A stretch of DNA of 52,096 bases. Origin: a virus. Lineage: Duplodnaviria > Heunggongvirae > Uroviricota > Caudoviricetes. The notes under the pieces are model-generated. The model ran no database searches, was not told the DNA's origin, and saw nothing but the letters and a program-made list of their open reading frames with translations. The position numbers and the translations under genes were made by a program. The stretch spans positions 275,298 through 327,393 of the IMG/VR virus record IMGVR_UViG_3300033463_000001. One strand, given 5' to 3'. Positions 717 to 32,424 of the stretch are shown piece after piece. Within the stretch, counting starts at the first letter, position 1; every line of letters starts with the position of its first letter.

Positions 717-748
717 CAAAGATAAGTAAAAAATTCCATATATGCAAA
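717..748 (-). promoter_or_regulatory. Bacteroidetes housekeeping-type promoter (-33 TTTG / -7 TAnnTTTG)
   Basis: Minus strand reads TTTG-N20-TATCTTTG, upstream of ATG 681. Confidence 0.8.
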
Positions 749-14925: not shown

Positions 14926-14964
14926 AAAAAACGTCCACTGGATTTGTCCATGTGGATTTTTTTT
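14926..14964. terminator. terminator hairpin with A/T tracts on both sides
   Basis: AAAAAA-cgTCCAC-TGGA-tttg-TCCA-t-GTGGA-TTTTTTT. Confidence 0.65.
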
Positions 14965-14974
14965 ATTATATTTG
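14943..14974 (+). promoter_or_regulatory. Bacteroidetes housekeeping-type promoter
   Basis: TTTG-N20-TATATTTG. Confidence 0.7.
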
Positions 14975-15046: not shown

Positions 15047-15078
15047 TTTGCATATTTGAAAAAATTTACTTATATTTG
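15047..15078 (+). promoter_or_regulatory. Bacteroidetes housekeeping-type promoter
   Basis: TTTG-N20-TATATTTG upstream of sigma #2. Confidence 0.8.
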
Positions 15079-19354: not shown

Positions 19355-19655
19355 TTTTAAGGAAGGTAGAACATCGTTCTGGTTTAATATTGTACTAAAG
19401 AAGCTTGGGTTTTATACAAAGCCTAGGCTTGAAATGTATAATCGGTGGTCACACACATATTACAGTCTCCACAATAAGAAACTGGTGTGGATAGGTGGAT
19501 TTGCGCCGATTTATTCCATCGAGCTACCAGCGCCTACATTGAGACAGTTATGGGGGTTGATTTTTACTACTGAAAAAGATGTTAAGGAATACGACAGGCG
19601 CTACCGTGAGAGCATGCGTAAAGCAATCGAACAGTGTAAGGAGACGAAGTCATGA
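19338..19655 (+). CDS. hypothetical protein
   Basis: ORF; start may be ATG 19347. Confidence 0.6.
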   Translation: MLTMYNFKEGRTSFWFNIVLKKLGFYTKPRLEMYNRWSHTYYSLHNKKLVWIGGFAPIYSIELPAPTLRQLWGLIFTTEKDVKEYDRRYRESMRKAIEQCKETKS

Positions 19656-20179
19656 CGGTACAGTATAGCGAGCGACAAATCGCCACATTGTTGGTTAACT
19701 CATACATCGAAGGCGGTTTTCGTGTAAATTTATGTGTTCCTGGTGTTTCGTTCGGTTTCTTCAGTACCCATGAGGCTGATTTGGTGTCTGTAACGAAGTC
19801 TGGATACCTCACTGAGTTCGAGATTAAGCGCACGTGGCAAGATTTTCTGCACGATTTCAAGAAACACACAAACCATTTTGAGAACAAGGTATCGTGTCTG
19901 TACTACGTCGTTCCGGCTTTCATTGCTGATAAGTGCCTTGAGTATCTTGAAAGTCACGAATGGCCTGCGCCGTACAATAACACGTTGTTTGGTTATACAT
20001 GCCCTGTCGGATTGGTTGCATATAACGAGTTCGGACGATTCAAAACCGTAAAGCATGCACCGCAGCTGTGTATCTACACACAGCGTAAGCGGCAAGAATA
20101 TAAACTAACAGAGGCTGAGATTCATAATCTTGCCAGGCTGGGAACTATGAGATATTGGAACCCAAAAATTGAAAAATAA
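19652..20179 (+). CDS. PD-(D/E)XK nuclease-like protein (MmcB-like)
   Basis: EADLVSV..SGYLTEFEIKRTWQDFLHD motif. Confidence 0.65.
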   Translation: MTVQYSERQIATLLVNSYIEGGFRVNLCVPGVSFGFFSTHEADLVSVTKSGYLTEFEIKRTWQDFLHDFKKHTNHFENKVSCLYYVVPAFIADKCLEYLESHEWPAPYNNTLFGYTCPVGLVAYNEFGRFKTVKHAPQLCIYTQRKRQEYKLTEAEIHNLARLGTMRYWNPKIEK

Positions 20180-20192
20180 ATAAGGTAAACAT

Positions 20193-20684
20193 ATGGAAAC
20201 GAAATCACACATGCTCTTTCAAGACGACCATGACAATATAGGCGCTCTACTTGGTACGCGGTACGTAAAATTCCAGCAGGGGTACATGGACGTCGACGGA
20301 AAGAAAGTGACTGAACTCGATTTAGTTGAGTTAGAGCAACCGTTTAATCCGTTTGACGATGAAACCTTTAAGGCGCGTGAAGGTGCAAAGCGCGTACGTC
20401 TTGTATTCCTCAATAAGGAAGGCGTCGACGTCATGATTGAGTACCTTACAGACCTGCGCGATAAGGCGAAAGGTCTTGAGATTCTCAGCAAAAACATCGG
20501 TGACTACGAATGGTCTGAACGCACTCGCAAAGTATTTGAAACAGAAGGTATTGTAACTGTTCTCGACCTTGTAAGGTTGCAACGCTACCAAATTCTTGCA
20601 ATGCACAATGCCGGTAAGAAAACGATGGAGGAGATTGACGAATTTGTCAAGGCTAAACACCTTCAATTCGGAATGGATTTATGA
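20193..20684 (+). CDS. protein with C-terminal RNA polymerase alpha-CTD-like domain
   Basis: IGDYEWSERTRKVFETEGIVTVLDLV...HNAGKKTMEEIDEFVKAKHLQFG matches the RpoA CTD pattern. Confidence 0.75.
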   Translation: METKSHMLFQDDHDNIGALLGTRYVKFQQGYMDVDGKKVTELDLVELEQPFNPFDDETFKAREGAKRVRLVFLNKEGVDVMIEYLTDLRDKAKGLEILSKNIGDYEWSERTRKVFETEGIVTVLDLVRLQRYQILAMHNAGKKTMEEIDEFVKAKHLQFGMDL

Positions 20685-20845
20685 AGATAGGCTACACAAA
20701 ATGGGAAAATAACAGCGAAAGTTATTCTCAGAGGCGTTTTAGGTTCCTACCGATATTTGACGTAACAGGACATGGTAACCACTATTACACCATTGAGGCT
20801 GGAATTTGGTGGTATGGCTTCAAAATGACAATAGTTTTTGACTAA
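20681..20845 (+). CDS. small hypothetical protein (54 aa)
   Basis: Hand translation MKIGYTKWENNSES...; coupled on both ends. Confidence 0.6.
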   Translation: MKIGYTKWENNSESYSQRRFRFLPIFDVTGHGNHYYTIEAGIWWYGFKMTIVFD

Positions 20846-21282
20846 TGGAAACACACGAACAATACGCAACAATCGAAACAGCAAAATTACTGAAACGAGC
20901 TGGGTTTGACTGGCAATGCCACGCTGGATATCAGTATGGTCGTTTAACCGACTACCAGATATCACAACAGAGTGATGATATCCTAATCATGGATTTCAAC
21001 TCTGCCCCGGCGTACATGAATCAATATTCAGCACCAACTTTAGAAGTTGCTCGTAAGTGGCTTGCCGATGTGCATAATTTCTACATAGAAATACGTGTTG
21101 AACCAGATAGTGAAGGTGGAGTCGAGTGGATTCCTCAATGTTACAGGAAAAACATATGGTTGGACGAAATGATTGAAGACCAATGGCACCCGCAACCGAC
21201 ACCACCACATGGAACATACGAAGCGGCATTAGAAAAGGCCATTCGTAGATGTTTAACAATATTATTGCAGAAGAAAAAATGA
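20845..21282 (+). CDS. hypothetical protein, paralogue family A copy 1
   Basis: ETAKLLKRAGFDW...YSAPTL..A.KWL...YEAALEKAI.RCL. Confidence 0.75.
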   Translation: METHEQYATIETAKLLKRAGFDWQCHAGYQYGRLTDYQISQQSDDILIMDFNSAPAYMNQYSAPTLEVARKWLADVHNFYIEIRVEPDSEGGVEWIPQCYRKNIWLDEMIEDQWHPQPTPPHGTYEAALEKAIRRCLTILLQKKK

Positions 21283-21548
21283 AAACAATCTATAAACAAG
21301 AGCTCACAACATACGGCCAGCAAGTAGTCAATCTTCCTGTTGATGCACACATTATACATATTGACGTACAACGTGGTTATCCGTGTATGTGGTACACGTG
21401 CTATAGCGACTCTGAAAAAGTACTTAGGAAGGTATATTGCTTCTATACAGGCGAAGATATTCCCGATGAACCAATGGATTATCTCGGAACCGTTTTAGTA
21501 GAAAATGGAGAGTTGGTATTGCATTATTTCATGAGCAGACTTGTATGA
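21279..21548 (+). CDS. hypothetical protein
   Basis: ATGA-coupled start (MKTIYKQEL...). Confidence 0.7.
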   Translation: MKTIYKQELTTYGQQVVNLPVDAHIIHIDVQRGYPCMWYTCYSDSEKVLRKVYCFYTGEDIPDEPMDYLGTVLVENGELVLHYFMSRLV

Positions 21549-21724
21549 AAAACGTATTACAGAAGGCAATCAATTTCATCCGAATTATCATTCCGGACGA
21601 CACGCGAATATGCGAAGACATGCACGATAATAAGGAAGGACGCAAGTGGTGCGCAGAGCATTGTGCTGGCAATTGCGTGAAGGACGAATGCATTATACAA
21701 TTTTTAAATACGGTTAACATATGA
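21545..21724 (+). CDS. small Cys-rich hypothetical protein (59 aa)
   Basis: Hand translation MKNVLQKAINF...CAEHCAGNCVKDEC...; coupled on both ends. Confidence 0.6.
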   Translation: MKNVLQKAINFIRIIIPDDTRICEDMHDNKEGRKWCAEHCAGNCVKDECIIQFLNTVNI

Positions 21725-22404
21725 AAGATTATGAGATACAGGCGAATGCTGAGGCGTACGCGAAAACCAAAGAGATGAACAGTCCACGCAGCCAAGACGT
21801 GGAACTTGATAAATTGATGATTATCGAGGATTACACGGCCGGTGTACATAGTTGCGACGAGGAGATTGAGGCCTTCAAAACTGCTATTGAAGAGCAACGT
21901 TTGTTAATTCAAAAGCTCATTGAAGACAAAGCTGTTTTGATGAGTGAGGTTAACCGTTTGCGAGGTCAGTGGATAAGTGTAGAAGACCGGCTGCCAGCTA
22001 TGCGTGGTGACACTACAGTTTCAGAGGAGGTGTTAACCATAAGTGACAGGGGTATGATTAAAGTTCGGTATTACTCTTACGGAGGAAAGTATTGGAGTGG
22101 AATTCAAGAAATCCGTGATGAGTATGGTTACGACACTAAAGTAACGCACTGGATGCCAATTCCTGAGTTTAATGAGAAATGCACCAAGACTGACGTTGAC
22201 ATAGCAGGCAACCCATGGATTCGCACTGAGGATTGTATGCCGGAGGAACTGAAAGACGTATTGGTTGTCTCAAACTATGGAGACCTCGATGAATTCCATG
22301 TGGCAATGTATAACCCAAGCGGTTTCTGGCAAACATCAGACTGTATGATTATCGAAGAGGGTGTTCATTCGTGGATGCCGATTCCAAAACTGGTAGAAAA
22401 ATAA
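21721..22404 (+). CDS. DUF551-like protein, paralogue family B copy 1 (two DUF551-like domains)
   Basis: WISVEDRLP...VTHWMPIP and WIRTEDCMP...HSWMPIP. Confidence 0.75.
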   Translation: MKDYEIQANAEAYAKTKEMNSPRSQDVELDKLMIIEDYTAGVHSCDEEIEAFKTAIEEQRLLIQKLIEDKAVLMSEVNRLRGQWISVEDRLPAMRGDTTVSEEVLTISDRGMIKVRYYSYGGKYWSGIQEIRDEYGYDTKVTHWMPIPEFNEKCTKTDVDIAGNPWIRTEDCMPEELKDVLVVSNYGDLDEFHVAMYNPSGFWQTSDCMIIEEGVHSWMPIPKLVEK

Positions 22405-22410
22405 TCTATT

Positions 22411-22812
22411 ATGACAGATATACTCTACGAATCGTATGTTTCACTTGAAACTGCGAAACTACTGAAGAAGGCCGGGTTTGATTGGGTTTGCCGTTTCGCG
22501 TTTCTACCAACAACAGAACGAGGAGAAACACCTTATGCTTATTTTCATAAGCCTACCAATTATAACGATAAAATAAAATATCCTTATGAGGTATATTCTG
22601 CTCCTACTCTTGCTGTCGCTCAAAGATGGTTGAGGGAAGAGAAGAAAATCTATTTACACACAACAGGCATCGGGCCTTATTCAGCATATCTCGATAGTTT
22701 TGCGGCCGGCGGCGTACACTTGACGGATTGGTTTGATTCGTATGAAGAAGCATTAGAATCAGGAATCAAAAAATGTTTAACGGCATTAGTTAATAAACAT
22801 GAATCAAAGTGA
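22411..22812 (+). CDS. hypothetical protein, paralogue family A copy 2
   Basis: ETAKLLKKAGFDW...YSAPTLAVAQRWLRE...YEEALESGIKKCL. Confidence 0.75.
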   Translation: MTDILYESYVSLETAKLLKKAGFDWVCRFAFLPTTERGETPYAYFHKPTNYNDKIKYPYEVYSAPTLAVAQRWLREEKKIYLHTTGIGPYSAYLDSFAAGGVHLTDWFDSYEEALESGIKKCLTALVNKHESK

Positions 22813-23443
22813 ATTGCAGCAGCGAACAAGCGCGTGCCTGAAATACATTTCTGAGAAATATCCTTTATCTACATTAACAATCGAGCGTGCGATTAGTTTA
22901 GCTCTTGAGTGGGGATGGGAAGATGCATTGAAAAATGCTGATAAAGTCCTTAAATGGAGACAAGAACAGGAGGAGAAAAAGAAAGCAGAGGAGGCTACTC
23001 GTGAGGACTATACAAAAGAAGTAGATGCTGATGGCAGGACATGGTATAAACGTGCAAATTTATCTACACAACGCAAAGAATCACGCAAATTATCAGAAGG
23101 GGATATAATAAAATTCCGATATAGTCATGGCGAAGGTGTTATGGTAGTTGGGCATTTTGATTATGAGTCTGATTTTGCCGTTCGAGCATATTATTGTATA
23201 GAGGATTGGTCTTATACCGATGAAAATGGTAATACAATAAAAACTCGTAGTTACTGTGATGGGGTTGCGCCAGGAGTTAATGAATTCTCTTTTGCGACTG
23301 ACAATGAAATAAAACAGTTCTTTGAAGATATTAAAGCACATGGCCAATTTGGACGAAGCGGAATGACAGAGTTGGAATTCTATTTTAAATCTAAATTCAC
23401 ACCCGAAAAAATAAAGGAAAAATGTGCAAAATACGTTGAATAA
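22799..23443 (+). CDS. hypothetical protein
   Basis: 214-aa ORF. Confidence 0.7.
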   Translation: MNQSELQQRTSACLKYISEKYPLSTLTIERAISLALEWGWEDALKNADKVLKWRQEQEEKKKAEEATREDYTKEVDADGRTWYKRANLSTQRKESRKLSEGDIIKFRYSHGEGVMVVGHFDYESDFAVRAYYCIEDWSYTDENGNTIKTRSYCDGVAPGVNEFSFATDNEIKQFFEDIKAHGQFGRSGMTELEFYFKSKFTPEKIKEKCAKYVE

Positions 23444-23444
23444 C

Positions 23445-24014
23445 ATGAAAGAAACACAAGAAACATACAATAGGGCGAAAAACGCTTTTATGAGCCACCT
23501 ACTCTTTAGGTATATTAGGTGCGGAGATATTGATACTTTCAGGGAAGGTTTTCTGCATGAGCGTAAAGAAATGCCAATAGGATGTGTTATTATTCCTTAT
23601 GCTATCAAAAACCCAATGGAGTGGTATGTTGGATGGTACCGTGGTCGTGATGATAAAGGTGCATACTTAATAGAAAGCATTGAAACCCATAAGATATGTA
23701 GATTCTACAATTGTGCGTACCTTTATTCTAATGACAAAGACTTTACGGATAACCAGTGGTACCGGTATTCTGACCGCGAGTACAAGCTGATTGACATCAT
23801 TCGGAATAGAGTTTCTAAGCATAGTACATGGTTTGTAGTTGGAGCGCCAACGTTCCATGAAAACGGAAGTATTGATGTCCCTATTCGCGAAAAATTTAGT
23901 GACGATTTTCTAACTAAAACTTATCGCAACATGCGTTCCATGACAATCAAAGCGCTTGGCGAACAATGCGAAGAATTGTCAGAGATGAACAAAAAAGCAA
24001 TGGAATCAAAATGA
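23445..24014 (+). CDS. hypothetical protein
   Basis: ORF; start set at ATG after upstream stop. Confidence 0.7.
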   Translation: MKETQETYNRAKNAFMSHLLFRYIRCGDIDTFREGFLHERKEMPIGCVIIPYAIKNPMEWYVGWYRGRDDKGAYLIESIETHKICRFYNCAYLYSNDKDFTDNQWYRYSDREYKLIDIIRNRVSKHSTWFVVGAPTFHENGSIDVPIREKFSDDFLTKTYRNMRSMTIKALGEQCEELSEMNKKAMESK

Positions 24015-24175
24015 GATGTTTAGACTGCAGGTGGCTGTACTTAGATAAACTGTTGCACATATTCTATTGCACATGGTTCAAGTATAATAGTCAGCCAAAA
24101 AACGGGAAATTCGCGAACTGCAGGTTAAGGCAGTGTAGTAAAATTAAGCAATGTCCATTAAATAAAGCTGAATAA
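24011..24175 (+). CDS. small Cys-rich hypothetical protein (54 aa)
   Basis: MRCLDCRW...C...C...C...CP; ATGA-coupled. Confidence 0.6.
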   Translation: MRCLDCRWLYLDKLLHIFYCTWFKYNSQPKNGKFANCRLRQCSKIKQCPLNKAE

Positions 24176-24177
24176 GT

Positions 24178-24627
24178 ATGACAAACGATGAAATACAACA
24201 AAACGCAGAACATTACGCGTTTAGAAGAGTGCCCCATCGCGACAAAGAAATAGATTCACTCATTAAAATCATAGCAGAAGATGCTTATCTAGCAGGAGCT
24301 CATAGTCGTGATGACGAAGTAGGTTTAATGCCGAATGCTTTAGAGGCGCAAGCACTCATATTGCGTCAGATGGAGAAAGATATTGCAAAACTCCGATATC
24401 CTTGGATAAGTGTGAACAATCATCTCCCGGAAAGGGACGGGCGAACAAACACATCAGTCGTTGTGTTCGTATTGACAGAGCGCGGTCTTGCTACATCTGC
24501 CTGGTATGACTTTGATGACAATGAGTGGCATTTGCTCTATGGTTTTGTAGATGTGGAAGGAAACGATAAAATGGACTATGCTGTAACGCATTGGATGCCA
24601 ATCCCGAAACTGCAAATTGAAAACTAA
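24178..24627 (+). CDS. DUF551-like protein, paralogue family B copy 2
   Basis: AEDAYLAGAHSRD, WISVNNHLP, VTHWMPIP. Confidence 0.75.
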   Translation: MTNDEIQQNAEHYAFRRVPHRDKEIDSLIKIIAEDAYLAGAHSRDDEVGLMPNALEAQALILRQMEKDIAKLRYPWISVNNHLPERDGRTNTSVVVFVLTERGLATSAWYDFDDNEWHLLYGFVDVEGNDKMDYAVTHWMPIPKLQIEN

Positions 24628-25060
24628 CAATGATATGGTTATAATAACACTTTCAATACTTGTGGCTGTACTGTCAATCCTATTGGTGGCAGCTATGATT
24701 AGCTGGAATCGCGAGCGCTCGAAGCTTATTCGGGAAAAAGTTGAACTGGAAATAGAGTGCCAAAACGTCACAAAGTCTTATGGATTTCTCAGGAACGAAG
24801 TGTGTATGTTACACGAAGCATATTGTCGTGAAAGAGATATTAATAATGGCAAGCATCCTGAAAAAGTGGGAGAACTACCAAAAGACGCGTGGCTTGTTAC
24901 ACAACCATGGGGAACGCGCTACATATCACTCATTGAACCGGCGAATAATGGCATTTGCTACGACGTGATGACTAAGCGGCAGATTCCGGTAACGCCAGGA
25001 CTATTAACGCAAGTTCCTGATGGGAAAATAGACTATTCAAAACTAACAAAACGCAAATAA
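24617..25060 (+). CDS. membrane-anchored hypothetical protein
   Basis: N-terminal TM helix plus coiled coil. Confidence 0.65.
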   Translation: MKTNNDMVIITLSILVAVLSILLVAAMISWNRERSKLIREKVELEIECQNVTKSYGFLRNEVCMLHEAYCRERDINNGKHPEKVGELPKDAWLVTQPWGTRYISLIEPANNGICYDVMTKRQIPVTPGLLTQVPDGKIDYSKLTKRK

Positions 25061-25061
25061 C

Positions 25062-25526
25062 ATGGAAAAGCACGAAACCTACACATCTATAGAAACAGCA
25101 AAGCTACTCAAAGAAGCTGGCTTCGACTGGGAAATAACCACATATTACCATAGAGACTGGGAAGGAGAATACGAACCTACTCCGACTGAAGATTTTTCAA
25201 TCATTAACCACACCCAAAATCTAAATTGGAACGATGATGAAAAATTCTCACTGATACCAGACGGGCAATATAAAGGAATGTTAAATATCGTATCTGCTCC
25301 ATCTATTGCTATGGCTAGCAAATGGCTTAGAGAGGTTAAACATATTTTTGTATTTGCTGTGGCATTCTACGCACCAAACGAAGGTGGTTGGGTATTTGCT
25401 ACGAACATACGCAATATTCCGAGTAGTGGTGATGTGGAAATAAGTCCGTTTAGCACATACGAGCAAGCTATTGAAGCTGGCGTTAATCGTGCACTATTAG
25501 CCATATTAAAAAAGAAACTCAAATGA
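25062..25526 (+). CDS. hypothetical protein, paralogue family A copy 3
   Basis: ETAKLLKEAGFDW...SAPSIAMASKWLRE...YEQAIEAGV. Confidence 0.75.
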   Translation: MEKHETYTSIETAKLLKEAGFDWEITTYYHRDWEGEYEPTPTEDFSIINHTQNLNWNDDEKFSLIPDGQYKGMLNIVSAPSIAMASKWLREVKHIFVFAVAFYAPNEGGWVFATNIRNIPSSGDVEISPFSTYEQAIEAGVNRALLAILKKKLK

Positions 25527-26212
25527 AAACAATCAACACACTAACACTTTGTAATTATTTCGGAACCGGTAATAACATTACATTGACACTTCTGAAGGAT
25601 GGGCTCGCAAAAGACCAACCAATGGCAATTACAGGTCCTAATGGATACGGCAAGACGCTTATCTTGAAACTTATTTCTGAGTTACTAGATGAACGTTGTA
25701 CAGAATACACACACATCGCTGACGTTGTAACATTGACGTGTGACAGTGGTGAAGTTGTATATGAATGTAAAAACGAAGGTGATAAACCAGTAGTTACTCG
25801 CACCGGGACTCTTCCACAATGTATCCTTGTTAAAGACACAGATGAGTGGAATCCTGAGAAGGATAGTCCGATTACTTACGAGGAAAAGAAGGAAGTTCTT
25901 GACAAATTTGTCGGTGGTTTGATTCCTGAGGATGGTAGCCGTGGTTATAGTGCCGGTTACAAGAGGTTGATATGCATCTACCGCGCTGCGAAACGTTCAA
26001 AGGAAGAAGGTAAGGTGCTGTTGATTGACTACGCTGAGTCTAACATTCATATGTTTGGTCAGATTATATTCTCGAAAGAGATTAAACACTGGACAGACCA
26101 ACAGGTTGTAGTAACGACGCATTCGCCGCAAATCTTTGAAGGCTGCTTCGATAGAACAGATGATTTATACCGGTTACTATCCGGTGCACCAGATGATGAA
26201 GATGAAGAATAA
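25523..26212 (+). CDS. minimal ABC-type (AAA_21-like) ATPase with degenerate Walker B
   Basis: TGPNGYGKT, SAGYKRL, LLIDYAE, VVTTHSP. Confidence 0.75.
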   Translation: MKTINTLTLCNYFGTGNNITLTLLKDGLAKDQPMAITGPNGYGKTLILKLISELLDERCTEYTHIADVVTLTCDSGEVVYECKNEGDKPVVTRTGTLPQCILVKDTDEWNPEKDSPITYEEKKEVLDKFVGGLIPEDGSRGYSAGYKRLICIYRAAKRSKEEGKVLLIDYAESNIHMFGQIIFSKEIKHWTDQQVVVTTHSPQIFEGCFDRTDDLYRLLSGAPDDEDEE

Positions 26213-26217
26213 CAGTT

Positions 26218-26793
26218 ATGGCTAAGAATGAAATTAAACTCACGCTTTGCGAACGGATTAAGTTGTGGATTCGCAAGAAGTTATGCCTGTTAATCATGTG
26301 GGCGATTGGTGGTGTGCTTACTTTGATGCGAGAGGAAATATTGGAAAGTAAAGGTAAGCTACACAACCATATTAACAGAGAGTTTGAGGAACTAGAAGCC
26401 TCAACGAGTGAGCAACTGGAAGACTTGGATGAAAAAATCAACACACGAATTGATGTATTAGAAAAACGTGTGTGTGATTGGGTGAATAACTGGGGTAGGC
26501 GTTATGAAAATGCAGAAAAACTACTGAAACAGTTCGATGGTATGACCGCACACTGTGCTGTTGACTATCACAGGCACGAACCAAGTTGGGCTGTTATTCA
26601 CATAGCCGGCAAAAAGCGTGGATATCTCAAGTTTATTAACCTTGAGCGTCTCAATGCGCATGAGTTGATGACATTTCTAAATAGTTTTGAGTACCACGAT
26701 GTAGACGCAAGTCCAGATGTAACTGGTTTGGTTTACGAAACATTCTTTAATGAGCCGAAGACTAGGTTTGACCATAATTTACATGTTCTATGA
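26218..26793 (+). CDS. hypothetical protein
   Basis: Hydrophobic N-terminal segment plus coiled coil. Confidence 0.65.
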   Translation: MAKNEIKLTLCERIKLWIRKKLCLLIMWAIGGVLTLMREEILESKGKLHNHINREFEELEASTSEQLEDLDEKINTRIDVLEKRVCDWVNNWGRRYENAEKLLKQFDGMTAHCAVDYHRHEPSWAVIHIAGKKRGYLKFINLERLNAHELMTFLNSFEYHDVDASPDVTGLVYETFFNEPKTRFDHNLHVL

Positions 26794-27215
26794 CAAAGAA
26801 AGAAATTGAAAAAGCTGCTGAGAACTACGCGTTTGACCGTTATGACATTCCCTTCGAGGAAGACAGTGCAATGAAGGTTATTGTTGCAGAAGATGCATAC
26901 GAGGCCGGCGCACATAGTCGTGATAAAGAGGTTAAAGACCTTAAAGTAAAACTCAAGAAGGCTAATGAGCTGCTTCGTACAAGGAAAAATATCATTAGGA
27001 GTCTGATTGACCCGTGGATTAACGTTAGAGACAGGCTCCCGGAGGACAATGATTTAGTTCTTACAATATACTGGGTACACAAAGATTTCTACTCAATAGA
27101 GTTGTCGTCTTACAACCCGAAAACACGCGAGTGGGATTGTGGTGAGTTTGGTTACCGTATATCACACTGGATGCCAATTCCGAGACTTCCTCACGAGGAG
27201 AGAGATGAAGAATAA
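26790..27215 (+). CDS. DUF551-like protein, paralogue family B copy 3
   Basis: AEDAYEAGAHSRD, WINVRDRLP, ISHWMPIP. Confidence 0.75.
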   Translation: MTKKEIEKAAENYAFDRYDIPFEEDSAMKVIVAEDAYEAGAHSRDKEVKDLKVKLKKANELLRTRKNIIRSLIDPWINVRDRLPEDNDLVLTIYWVHKDFYSIELSSYNPKTREWDCGEFGYRISHWMPIPRLPHEERDEE

Positions 27216-27225
27216 CACCAAAGGA

Positions 27226-27257
27226 TTTGCAAAATTGAAAATTTTTACTTATCTTTG
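27226..27257 (+). promoter_or_regulatory. Bacteroidetes housekeeping-type promoter
   Basis: TTTG-N20-TATCTTTG upstream of ATG 27289. Confidence 0.8.
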
Positions 27258-27288
27258 CGGTAGTTTTTAAAAATTAACGTTTAATTGT

Positions 27289-27558
27289 ATGAAACCAGGA
27301 GAATTCACGATTGAATTTGCAGAAAGTAAGGCAAAACTTTATGTAACCGACGATTCGAGCGAAGCCACATTCCTGACTTTCTTAATGGAAGCAATCAAGG
27401 TTATGCCGAAAGAGTATAAATTCTCGTACTCTATGGACAAACCTATTGAGCACACACATATCAGTGTGCCGAAACCTCTTCCGGAAGGAGAATTGGTAAA
27501 GTTAGCACTCGAACAACAGAAAAAAGACATGGATGCATTCCTAAATCAACCTGAATGA
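27289..27558 (+). CDS. hypothetical protein
   Basis: First ORF after host-type promoter. Confidence 0.7.
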   Translation: MKPGEFTIEFAESKAKLYVTDDSSEATFLTFLMEAIKVMPKEYKFSYSMDKPIEHTHISVPKPLPEGELVKLALEQQKKDMDAFLNQPE

Positions 27559-27559
27559 A

Positions 27560-28852
27560 ATGAAAACATACACAATTGATGAAGTAGATAACAGCAACCT
27601 GCTCCTTTACAAATTTCGAAGGGGTTCGCATGCATTTGGCCTTGCCACCGAAACCAGTGATATCGATACCGGTGGATGCTTCATCGCGCCGCAGCGAGCT
27701 CTCTATGGAATCCGTGGACATTACGAAATGCCTACAGAGTATCAGAAGCAAGTTGCAAGTTATAAGAACGACGATGTTCGTTACGAGATTGGTTCCTTTG
27801 TTGAGTTGTTGACAAAATCAAACCCGACAGCGCTTGAGGCTCTATATGCAGCAGACGACTGCGTTGAATATGTTCACCCGCTATTCCAGGTTCTACGCGA
27901 CAACAAAGAAATGTTCGTCTCTAAGGATGCGCTTATCTCGTTCTGGAAATACGCAGCTAGCCAAATTCGCAAAGCGCGTGGACTTAACAAGAAGATTGTT
28001 AACGAGGTAAAAGAACGCAAAGAGGTGCTTGATTTCTGTACAACATTCAGAAAGCAGGGTAGCACACCTGTTCGCTCATGGCTGGCTCAACGAGGTCTAT
28101 TGCAAAAATACTGTGGACTCAACAAGGTGCCGGACATGGTGCGTATGTACAACTGCTACTACGACTGGCAAGAGCACTTGCACCTCACATGGAAAGACGG
28201 TGTCGAAATGCACAATGCATACCGTAATGGCGAGAGTAAAGAGTTTTTCGAGTGGCTTTTCACAAGTGGTGTTCTAGATGAAAACCCGCGTCATCTTGAT
28301 TTCCAATTGGAGGAGGCTAATTTCATCAACGTCTATAAGAACGCCATTCCGAAGGGCTACCACGGAATACAGCGCGAGGATGGAACATCAACGGATATCC
28401 GAAAAGATTCTATTCTTGAAGGGGATAAGCCTATTTGTCAGATTTCCTATAACGACGATGGCTTCCAATCACACTGCAGGCAGTATAAGGAGTACCAAGA
28501 GTGGGTTCTGAAGCGCAATAAGGTACGTTACGAGAGTAATCTCGGACACAACTATGACGCAAAGAATATTTCACACTGCCTCAGGCTTCTGACGATGGCA
28601 TTGGAAATGGCTCAAAACAAAGACATGATTCTCGACAGGCGTATTGCTGGAGATAGGGATTACCTTTTGGACGTTAAGAATCACAAGTTTGAATACGAAG
28701 AGGTTATTACTAAGGCAGATGCACTCGAAGAGCAACTGAAAGAGTCTTTGGGCACCTGTACGCTTCCGGAGCACGTTGATGTTGACAAAGCGAATGAACT
28801 GTTAGTTAAGATTCGCGAAGCATTCTATAACGGTAAAACAAAAATTGATTGA
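27560..28852 (+). CDS. DNA polymerase beta-superfamily nucleotidyltransferase (RlaP/Nuc-transf-like)
   Basis: RGSHAFGLATETSDIDTGG (GS..G....SD.D), KSNPTALE, YDAKNISHCLRLL. Confidence 0.85.
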   Translation: MKTYTIDEVDNSNLLLYKFRRGSHAFGLATETSDIDTGGCFIAPQRALYGIRGHYEMPTEYQKQVASYKNDDVRYEIGSFVELLTKSNPTALEALYAADDCVEYVHPLFQVLRDNKEMFVSKDALISFWKYAASQIRKARGLNKKIVNEVKERKEVLDFCTTFRKQGSTPVRSWLAQRGLLQKYCGLNKVPDMVRMYNCYYDWQEHLHLTWKDGVEMHNAYRNGESKEFFEWLFTSGVLDENPRHLDFQLEEANFINVYKNAIPKGYHGIQREDGTSTDIRKDSILEGDKPICQISYNDDGFQSHCRQYKEYQEWVLKRNKVRYESNLGHNYDAKNISHCLRLLTMALEMAQNKDMILDRRIAGDRDYLLDVKNHKFEYEEVITKADALEEQLKESLGTCTLPEHVDVDKANELLVKIREAFYNGKTKID

Positions 28853-32106: not shown

Positions 32107-32424
32107 ATGACTGAAGAAAGATTAAAAGAATTAGCGGGAGCTTACATTAAAGAGACGCTAGACTCGCCGGAAGACCAAACGTTATGTGAGATTATCGAAG
32201 AGAACTACACAACCGGTGCTAATGATGCGATGGATTTGAAGCAACAAGCACTCGATTTCGCAAATGATGTAATTGATGACCCGGAAAACCACCAGGACGC
32301 TGTATATTCAACCTTACTGGATTATTATCAGGGTGCAATTGCCGCATTGGAAGAGTTGAGTCAAGAAACATCAGAGAAGCTGGCAGAAATCGCCGGTGTA
32401 GAAGGAGACGCTGAGATTGAGTAA
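32107..32424 (+). CDS. acidic hypothetical protein with internal repeat
   Basis: Two LK..A..(Y/F)...PE(D/N)....Y..GA..A units. Confidence 0.7.
   Translation: MTEERLKELAGAYIKETLDSPEDQTLCEIIEENYTTGANDAMDLKQQALDFANDVIDDPENHQDAVYSTLLDYYQGAIAALEELSQETSEKLAEIAGVEGDAEIE

Follow-up and report, generated by a model that had tools for sequence, protein, structure and literature searches.

Two old gene families alternate in an array of a giant ruminant-gut phage and vary by replacement of segments within their genes

The window analyzed here is a stretch of DNA of 52,096 nucleotides, the final 52 kb of the 327,393-bp virus record IMGVR_UViG_3300033463_000001 (positions 275,298 to 327,393; GC 42%). At 20845-27215 of the window lies an array in which small genes of two families, here called A and B, alternate, with unrelated genes (cargo) between them (Table 1). 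The metagenome runs that contain the window come mostly from bovine, goat and other animal guts (14 studies), no RNA run being among those listed, and the source is a giant rumen or ruminant-gut phage of 327 kb with Bacteroidota-type promoters. According to the open reading frame (ORF) listing of window 19500-28500, from which the gene map was taken, the array genes form a gap-free run on the plus strand with overlaps or spacings of 1-7 nt. The three A and three B genes recognized in an earlier reading of the sequence (the original prediction) were confirmed as open frames that alternate with unrelated genes between them. The cargo genes all differ, as had been proposed: they are mutually unrelated and have no paralogues anywhere in the genome.

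Table 1 Genes, exchangeable segments and promoters of the array and its surroundings (window coordinates)
Feature	Position	Strand	Remark
Second upstream promoter copy	14943-14974	+	Same motif scan
Bacteroidota-type promoter TTTG-N20-TAnnTTTG	15047-15078	+	Nearest upstream plus-strand copy; inferred start of array unit
A1, family A, 145 aa	20845-21282	+	phrog_12005; predicted alpha/beta sandwich
Cargo c1a, 99 aa, DUF7352	21249-21548	+	PF24043 E 3.8e-20; phrog_3848
Cargo c1b, 59 aa, Cys-rich, no family	21545-21724	+	
B1, family B, 227 aa: N-module, coiled coil, two tandem DUF551 domains	21721-22404	+	
B1 replaceable core, first DUF551 domain	21996-22140	+	Between WISV.D.LP and VTHWMPIP blocks
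A2, family A, 133 aa	22411-22812	+	phrog_12005
A2 variable segment 1	22486-22597	+	Between GFDW and SAPTLAVAQRWL blocks; replaced in L102/P0104 and P0169
A2 variable segment 2	22645-22738	+	Between RWLRE and SYEEALE blocks; replaced only in P0169, independently of segment 1
Cargo c2a, 214 aa, no family	22799-23443	+	
Cargo c2b, 196 aa, no family	23424-24014	+	
Doubtful ORF c2c, 69 aa, or 163-nt non-coding gap	23966-24175	+	
B2, family B, 149 aa: helical N-hairpin, long helix, DUF551	24178-24627	+	
B2 N-module and coiled-coil segment	24183-24402	+	X3 version diverged, longer by about 90 nt
Spacer gene, 147 aa from TTG (gene callers 121-141 aa)	24617-25060	+	No family; membrane-like segment at N-terminus
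A3, family A, 154 aa	25062-25526	+	phrog_12005
Cargo c3a, 229 aa, minimal ABC-type ATPase	25523-26212	+	Similar to AriA, PtuA and AbiLi heads
Cargo c3b, 191 aa, coiled-coil-like	26218-26793	+	Weak phrog_18362 match
B3, family B, 141 aa	26790-27215	+	
Next Bacteroidota-type promoter, TTTGCAAAATTGAAAATTTTTACTTATCTTTG	27226-27257	+	End marker of array unit

Fixed blocks define both families. The alignment of A1-A3 has 30 invariant columns, including ETAKLLK.AGFDW, SAP...A..WL and YE.A.E, and that of B1-B3 likewise has 30, including A..Y, Y.AG.HS.D, WI.V..LP and HWMPIP. This bears out the blocks described for A and the combination of an N-terminal module (N-module) and DUF551 described for B, whose three members all pass the Pfam cut-off of 22 bits for DUF551 (PF04448; B1 58.7 with two domains, B2 30.9, B3 31.5). 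The A proteins match the phrog_12005 profile over about 125 of its 137 positions (E 7.3e-12 for A1, 4.5e-9 for A2 and 6e-14 for A3). A1-A3 matched no Pfam family; in Pfam scans at E up to 1, they had no match to Phage_ABA_S, and B1-B3 had none to Ead/Ea22 (PF13935 / IPR025153). The blocks had also been proposed to be conserved as DNA. That holds for CAYTGGATGCCAAT, which occurs exactly three times (22147, 24589 and 27165; 0.07 expected), whereas the pattern given for the A block found no match as first written and matched all three A genes once one N was added.

Close relatives reveal where these genes vary. All divergent patches among them lie within A or B genes and are bounded by conserved blocks. 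L102, a 6.6-kb JGI contig, is collinear with the region at 95-99% nucleotide identity; its B1 and A2 are 83.5% and 76.9% identical to those of the window, and all other complete genes 91-100%. The B1 core of L102 has the same length as the window version and is unrelated to it. It matches a B paralogue of this genome, Bc (genome 257883-258206), at 82% over 154 nt (E 7e-39), and in a protein alignment it follows Bc, which the window B1 does not. In X3, an assembly from an independent study, B1 carries a replacement of the same length, diverged, with its joint at 21995/22141; X4 has the window type, so both B1 alleles circulate. Only the first DUF551 core of B1 is replaced in relatives. X3 also carries a patch in B2 with joints at 24182/24284 and 24314/24403 (contig coordinates 1610-1921), within which the island 24284-24314 (AYLAGAHSRD) stays conserved. 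No other B copy has two tandem DUF551 domains as B1 does, and the second domain of B1 is identical in L102.

A2 occurs in three natural alleles that combine versions of its two variable segments: the window (1a,2a), L102 and P0104 (1b,2a) and P0169 (1b,2c), the last from the 86% relative described below. The three conserved blocks of A2 are identical or nearly so across these alleles, and segment 2c shares 84% identity with a further family member whose overall identity is only 56%. Each variable segment thus reassorts independently of the other, and the break points lie in the conserved blocks. The original prediction had the conserved blocks mediate recombination. Crossovers do fall at the blocks, but the data support them as crossover points for segments within genes and not for cargo. 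Targeting of the segments by a diversity-generating retroelement (DGR) was considered and rejected: window 19500-28500 holds no template-like repeat, the patches were searched genome-wide, and the variants differ by replacement of whole segments with insertions and deletions.

The predicted structures give the blocks and segments a place in the fold. The model of A1 (pLDDT 82.5) is an alpha/beta sandwich in which the conserved blocks form three helices and the variable segments form beta hairpins or loops. It aligns over its full length with AlphaFold Database (AFDB) clusters named 'Phage ABA sandwich domain' (E 3.5e-6 to 9e-2; best template modeling score 0.68 for the query and 0.81 for the hit) and weakly with the solved phage protein 1r7l (Z 4.0). 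The likeness to the Phage ABA sandwich / DUF2591 family is one between predicted models only, with no counterpart in Pfam sequence matches, and that family is itself without known function. A Foldseek search of the PDB with the A model gave no match at E below 0.001. Its top VIA-align hit (Z 4.1), a half-domain resembling a double-stranded RNA-binding domain, lies within the noise range and was discarded. The B2 model (pLDDT 75) has helices at residues 3-17, 23-41 and 45-73, a helical hairpin and a 29-residue helix, followed by a beta-rich DUF551. It has no PDB match, and its top match in Swiss-Prot, YfdS, is weak. Sequence profile searches of the PDB with A and B found nothing, and eight longer, possibly fused A homologues have no Pfam domain.

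The cargo does not follow this pattern. Five or six other contigs encode proteins identical to A1, B2 and B3, and the one shown fully has the same gene order. Contigs of four independent studies were compared; among them, a 4.7-kb contig of X3 spans c1a to c3a with its order unchanged. Shorter contig pieces from three other runs are collinear at about 95% identity, and even a relative whose c2a protein is only 86% identical keeps the order B1-A2-c2a-c2b-B2-spacer-A3-c3a-c3b-B3. A further contig, L167, is identical to this genome and supplied gene calls and zero variation. No well-supported joint that deletes or replaces cargo was found among the compared contigs. Two candidate cargo deletions, with joints 22588->26192 and 22639->23972, were rejected: on one side they match over just 20 and 29 letters at 80% likeness, and they start in a conserved A2 block matched by many contigs, so they were treated as cross-matches from family members.

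These results bear directly on the mechanism of the original prediction, in which cargo is swapped, added or deleted through A and B as homology arms, as in an integron that lacks its integrase. The shuffling by PeSL regulatory cassettes of T4-type phages would be a similar model. Every close relative found keeps both cargo and order, the outcome that the prediction itself had named as refuting, and the two candidate joints supply no supported exchange. The integron likeness goes no further than the picture of unrelated genes separated by repeated elements. Family scans of the array genes and of the flanking genes at 19652-20684 and 27289-28852 found no recombinase family and hence no integron integrase, and no recurrent inverted repeat resembling an attC site was found at the array gene boundaries. 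PeSLs are the nearest published mechanism to such cassettes: in T4-type phages, short conserved sequences flank non-essential ORFans and mediate their insertion, deletion and replacement between close phages (PMC2839356). PeSLs, however, are non-coding cassettes of promoter and stem-loop with high DNA identity, whereas the repeats here are diverged coding genes. No promoter or terminator-like hairpin lies between the array genes and no cargo replacement of the PeSL type was seen among close relatives. The array offers neither intergenic space nor a promoter-terminator cassette nor a recombinase. We therefore consider cargo exchange by such arms unlikely, and return below to the observations that favor it.

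The array is one of several such places in the genome. Genome-wide profile searches identified 12 family A genes and about 11 genes of B type, of which 8 have the N-module and 8 or more have DUF551, some carrying one of the two only; DUF551 has ten matches in the genome. The A and B genes form five clusters, the window array being cluster 5, and are thus co-clustered; independent scatter, the other outcome that the original prediction had named as refuting, is not what the genome shows. Cluster 4 (genome 250-258 kb, minus strand) reads, in the order of transcription, Bc, Bc, A-[3]-B-[4]-A-[1]-Bn-A-[1]-Bn-A-[3]-B and adds four A..B units to the three of the window, for seven units in two arrays. 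Cluster 2 consists of A and DUF551. A B gene lies within five genes downstream of 8 of the 12 A genes, against 1.3 expected (p 5e-5). B also directly precedes A in several places (B1-A2, two Bn-A pairs and one Bc-A pair), so that the unit can be read as A..B or as B-A with genes inserted between units.

Seven A-[1-3 genes]-B units, together with similar single units in three other large phages, favor an exchange of cargo between fixed arms, as do the mutually unrelated cargo genes, which are unlike the result of a simple tandem duplication of whole units. They also speak to whether the alternation means anything at all. Two abundant accessory families could have come together in one plastic region with no shared history or meaning, and both are indeed large and common in phage early regions: family A comprises 11,631 representative clusters (50% identity) at E up to 1e-3, and DUF551 is widespread. 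The strict alternation that the original prediction emphasized is true in the window, but three A and three B genes would alternate by chance with a p of about 0.10, and its weight comes from elsewhere. The second array alternates four more times (p 0.023), the linkage of A and B holds genome-wide, and single units resembling A-x-B recur in three other large phages. Mere coincidence is thus very improbable.

Further B-like sequences were observed around the clusters. Two truncated B genes of 83 and 69 aa (genome 251960-252211 and 252897-253106, minus strand; L166) consist of the N-module only and stop 1-4 nt short of an A gene. One of these A genes is followed immediately by a 96-aa ORF with a weak DUF551-like match, as if B were split around A. 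Downstream of the array, the profile of the B N-module weakly matches a 105-aa ORF at window 32107-32424 (whole-protein E 6e-5).

A third family, C, has 12 copies of 111-153 aa with the blocks NNYTTPEQSKRLLELGVP.DSADCYY, PCWSVGRLIEI and DFSKL around two variable segments. Its genes lie at L164:607-10326 (genome 148.6-158.3 kb), L166:12576-13823 and L165:5450-8590. Family C clusters together with A, twice lies directly upstream of A, and has no Pfam family. Homology of C to A was considered and is not established (hhalign probability 21% over 29 columns).

The members of A and B are old. The A paralogues are 30-44% identical in amino acids, and none of the window copies has another window copy as its nearest relative. 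Across A and B, paralogous proteins are 30-45% identical overall and synonymous sites have almost reached saturation. Where residues are identical, copies share a codon only 1.17-1.32 times as often as codon usage predicts, so conservation of the blocks at the DNA level largely follows from that of the protein. The longest exact DNA words shared between copies are 22 nt for A, 18 nt for B and 17 nt for the B copies of the window, against a background median of 9. Homology arms would therefore share at most 17-22 nt of exact sequence, which further speaks against cargo exchange between them. The 171-kb phage G001 carries an A-B-x-A locus in which both A genes and the middle gene best match cluster 3 of this genome. 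The orthologous A pairs and the synteny with cluster 3 indicate that the paralogues are older than the split of these phages. A and B are old multigene families, not fresh repeats able to recombine efficiently with each other.

Beyond this genome, A and DUF551 families are habitual neighbors in gut phages. From A anchors, IMG/VR yielded 80 loci, 71 of them in one lineage, where DUF551 often lies 0.4-3 kb upstream of A. A B-family match lies within 10 kb of the anchor in five of nine lineages. From DUF551 anchors, found in IMG/VR with the three-member B alignment, A was present at 18 of 58 loci and in 13 of 32 lineages, and 17 of the 18 lie downstream on the same strand at 0.3-4.5 kb.

Such neighborhood across many unrelated phages would also be expected if A and B were functional modules that bind each other or adapt the cargo, their order being kept by selection for co-expression or assembly and not by history. 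The 4-nt overlaps by which the array genes count as translationally coupled would suit this, as would a weak positive correlation of A and B divergence (r 0.43, p 0.03) when each A is paired with the B that follows. The order itself is less constant than this explanation would have it: small phages have B and then A, the reverse of the proposed unit, and cluster 1 (B-x-A-[7]-A) and cluster 3 (A-[6]-A, which lacks B) hold A genes with no B following. The truncated B genes that directly precede A lack DUF551, and the cargo varies from one to three unrelated genes per unit. We regard this explanation as improbable, if somewhat less so than an exchange of cargo.

At deep divergence the gene content between family members does change, and here cargo exchange finds its remaining support. 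G001 has a B gene between the orthologous A genes where this genome has three other genes. Homologues of c2a (35-48% identity) occur in other phages, in L168 and L169 two genes downstream of an A gene, and c2a and the cargo of other clusters adjoin A elsewhere in varying combinations. Such varied neighborhoods are ordinary accessory-region mosaicism at deep divergence and show no dedicated cassette mechanism. Two unrelated phage contigs (L168:2500-11500 and L175:1-8900) carry many homologues of the small genes of the A, B and C clusters in differing orders, among them c2a, the 151-aa gene after A_22719, the 118-aa cargo of cluster 4 and the 59- and 134-aa genes of cluster 1. The phages with A-family genes appear to share a pool of accessory genes.

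We think it likely that A and B are ancient linked pairs in an operon and that recombination at their conserved blocks swaps segments inside the genes. A linked A/B gene pair would have been duplicated anciently, which would leave the A..B alternation in two arrays and seven units with unrelated small genes between them; in close relatives these intervening genes are stable. Homeologous recombination between diverged family members, with crossovers in the short conserved blocks, would then replace one segment at a time and give rise to new segment combinations. The A and B proteins may serve as binding scaffolds that present variable surfaces to variable targets in hosts or competitors during host takeover or counter-defence. 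A fixed scaffold whose segments can be exchanged, the high copy number and the position close to a promoter together make a role as host-interaction or counter-defence binders the most likely one.

Several observations weigh against this account of ancient pairs and exchanged segments. The donor-like paralogue Bc is only 82% identical to the B1 patch of L102, so the real donor would be another family member, and an exchange within the genome looks the same as one with another phage. The number of distinct patches is three or four, from a handful of relatives that are mostly short metagenomic contigs. The alternation is broken in clusters 1 and 3. The history of the duplications is poorly resolved: A and B distances correlate in the A-to-B pairing and not in the B-to-A pairing. 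Early co-transcription is read from promoter motifs, and neither predicted fold offers a clue to function.

A bolder version joins family C to A and B. The three families would then be repertoires of early proteins with a fixed scaffold and exchangeable surface segments, forming a non-DGR diversification system in which copies within the genome and in co-infecting relatives recombine to produce new binders against host defence or takeover targets. We hold this to be possible but tentative. The same phage diversifies its tail fibres with DGRs.

The shuffling of segments is a style of mosaic evolution already known in phages; the gene families in which it occurs here are new. In T4 gp38, hypervariable segments lie between conserved, glycine-rich motifs and exchanges occur near the most conserved motifs (PMC3157838). 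A core of conserved motifs likewise brackets the variable segments in A and B, and recombination at the motifs yields chimeras, as in the A2 alleles and the B1 core. The mosaic pattern of gp38 thus has its counterpart in A2 alleles with reassorted segments and in a B1 core that is replaced in two independent samples. The settings differ. The adhesin gp38 is a single-copy virion protein with a known role in receptor binding, whereas A and B are small, multi-copy, apparently non-structural proteins encoded in a promoter-proximal operon, and neither is related to gp38 in sequence or fold.

Family B also recalls Ea22. Variants of Ea22 in lambda and Stx phages are mosaics in which several C-terminal domains are portable, DUF551 among them (the V2 variant; PMC10834534). 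The layout of family B is the same, with a coiled coil between a short N-terminal part and a portable C-terminal DUF551, and its C-terminal core is exchanged between family members. Ea22 genes, too, sit among small accessory genes that are transcribed very early. Family B differs in having no Ead/Ea22 match and a distinct N-module (A..Y...Y.AG.HS.D), in its Bacteroidota host lineage as opposed to E. coli, in its copy number of about 11 per genome and in its alternation with a second family.

Here the logic of segment reassortment known from phage adhesins appears in non-structural and probably early genes. An uncultured giant rumen phage keeps two, probably three, very large unannotated families at about a dozen copies each. 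Should the variable segments be interaction surfaces, the families would constitute a large untapped set of phage binders of Bacteroidota host factors and would let an arms race be followed at the population level. Otherwise they would still provide a clean example of ordinary phage mosaicism.

The array is probably the distal part of one long, tightly packed and early operon, with co-transcription and timing deduced from promoter motifs. The promoter motif TTTG-N20-TAnnTTTG has five matches in the window against 1.2 expected. Those on the plus strand lie at 14943, 15047 and 27226 only, with none between 15078 and 27226. Terminator-like sites number three (7.8 expected), and none lies between units on the plus strand. 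The transcription unit deduced from these sites begins upstream of a gene that Pfam labels as sigma-factor-like and stops just before the promoter at 27226.

Unit 2 had been described with three cargo genes. Two of these, c2a and c2b, stand, and c2c is doubtful: the ORF overlaps the end of the preceding gene and is left uncalled in all three assemblies with gene calls shown. Unit 2 is probably two cargo genes plus a gap of 163 nt. This stretch before B2 (window 24015-24177) is the sole sizeable gap of the array and is 99.5% identical in L102; it contains no promoter motif, and its predicted RNA fold (z -0.24) is unstructured. The 69-aa ORF in it, skipped by gene callers, is Cys-rich.

Among the cargo, only c1a and c3a have an informative family match. 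The c3a protein is the sole PADLOC match of the array proteins, to generic ABC-ATPase heads. It is a stand-alone ATPase whose best matches are the ATPase heads of the defence proteins AriA, AbiLi and PtuA, and it has no adjacent nuclease partner.

A blastn search of the region against INPHARED phages gave no match. Relatives were also sought with the RlaP protein in IMG/VR, which gave one weak unrelated match, and with the alpha-CTD protein in JGI metagenomes, which gave none; these blanks are uninformative. In each of three metagenomes, several unrelated contigs match only the 32-nt promoter at window 27226-27258, and near-identical copies of TTTGCAAAATTGAAAATTTTTACTTATCTTTG lie at window 717-748 (minus strand) and 15047-15078 (plus strand). 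This promoter looks like a phage consensus that is widespread among rumen phages.

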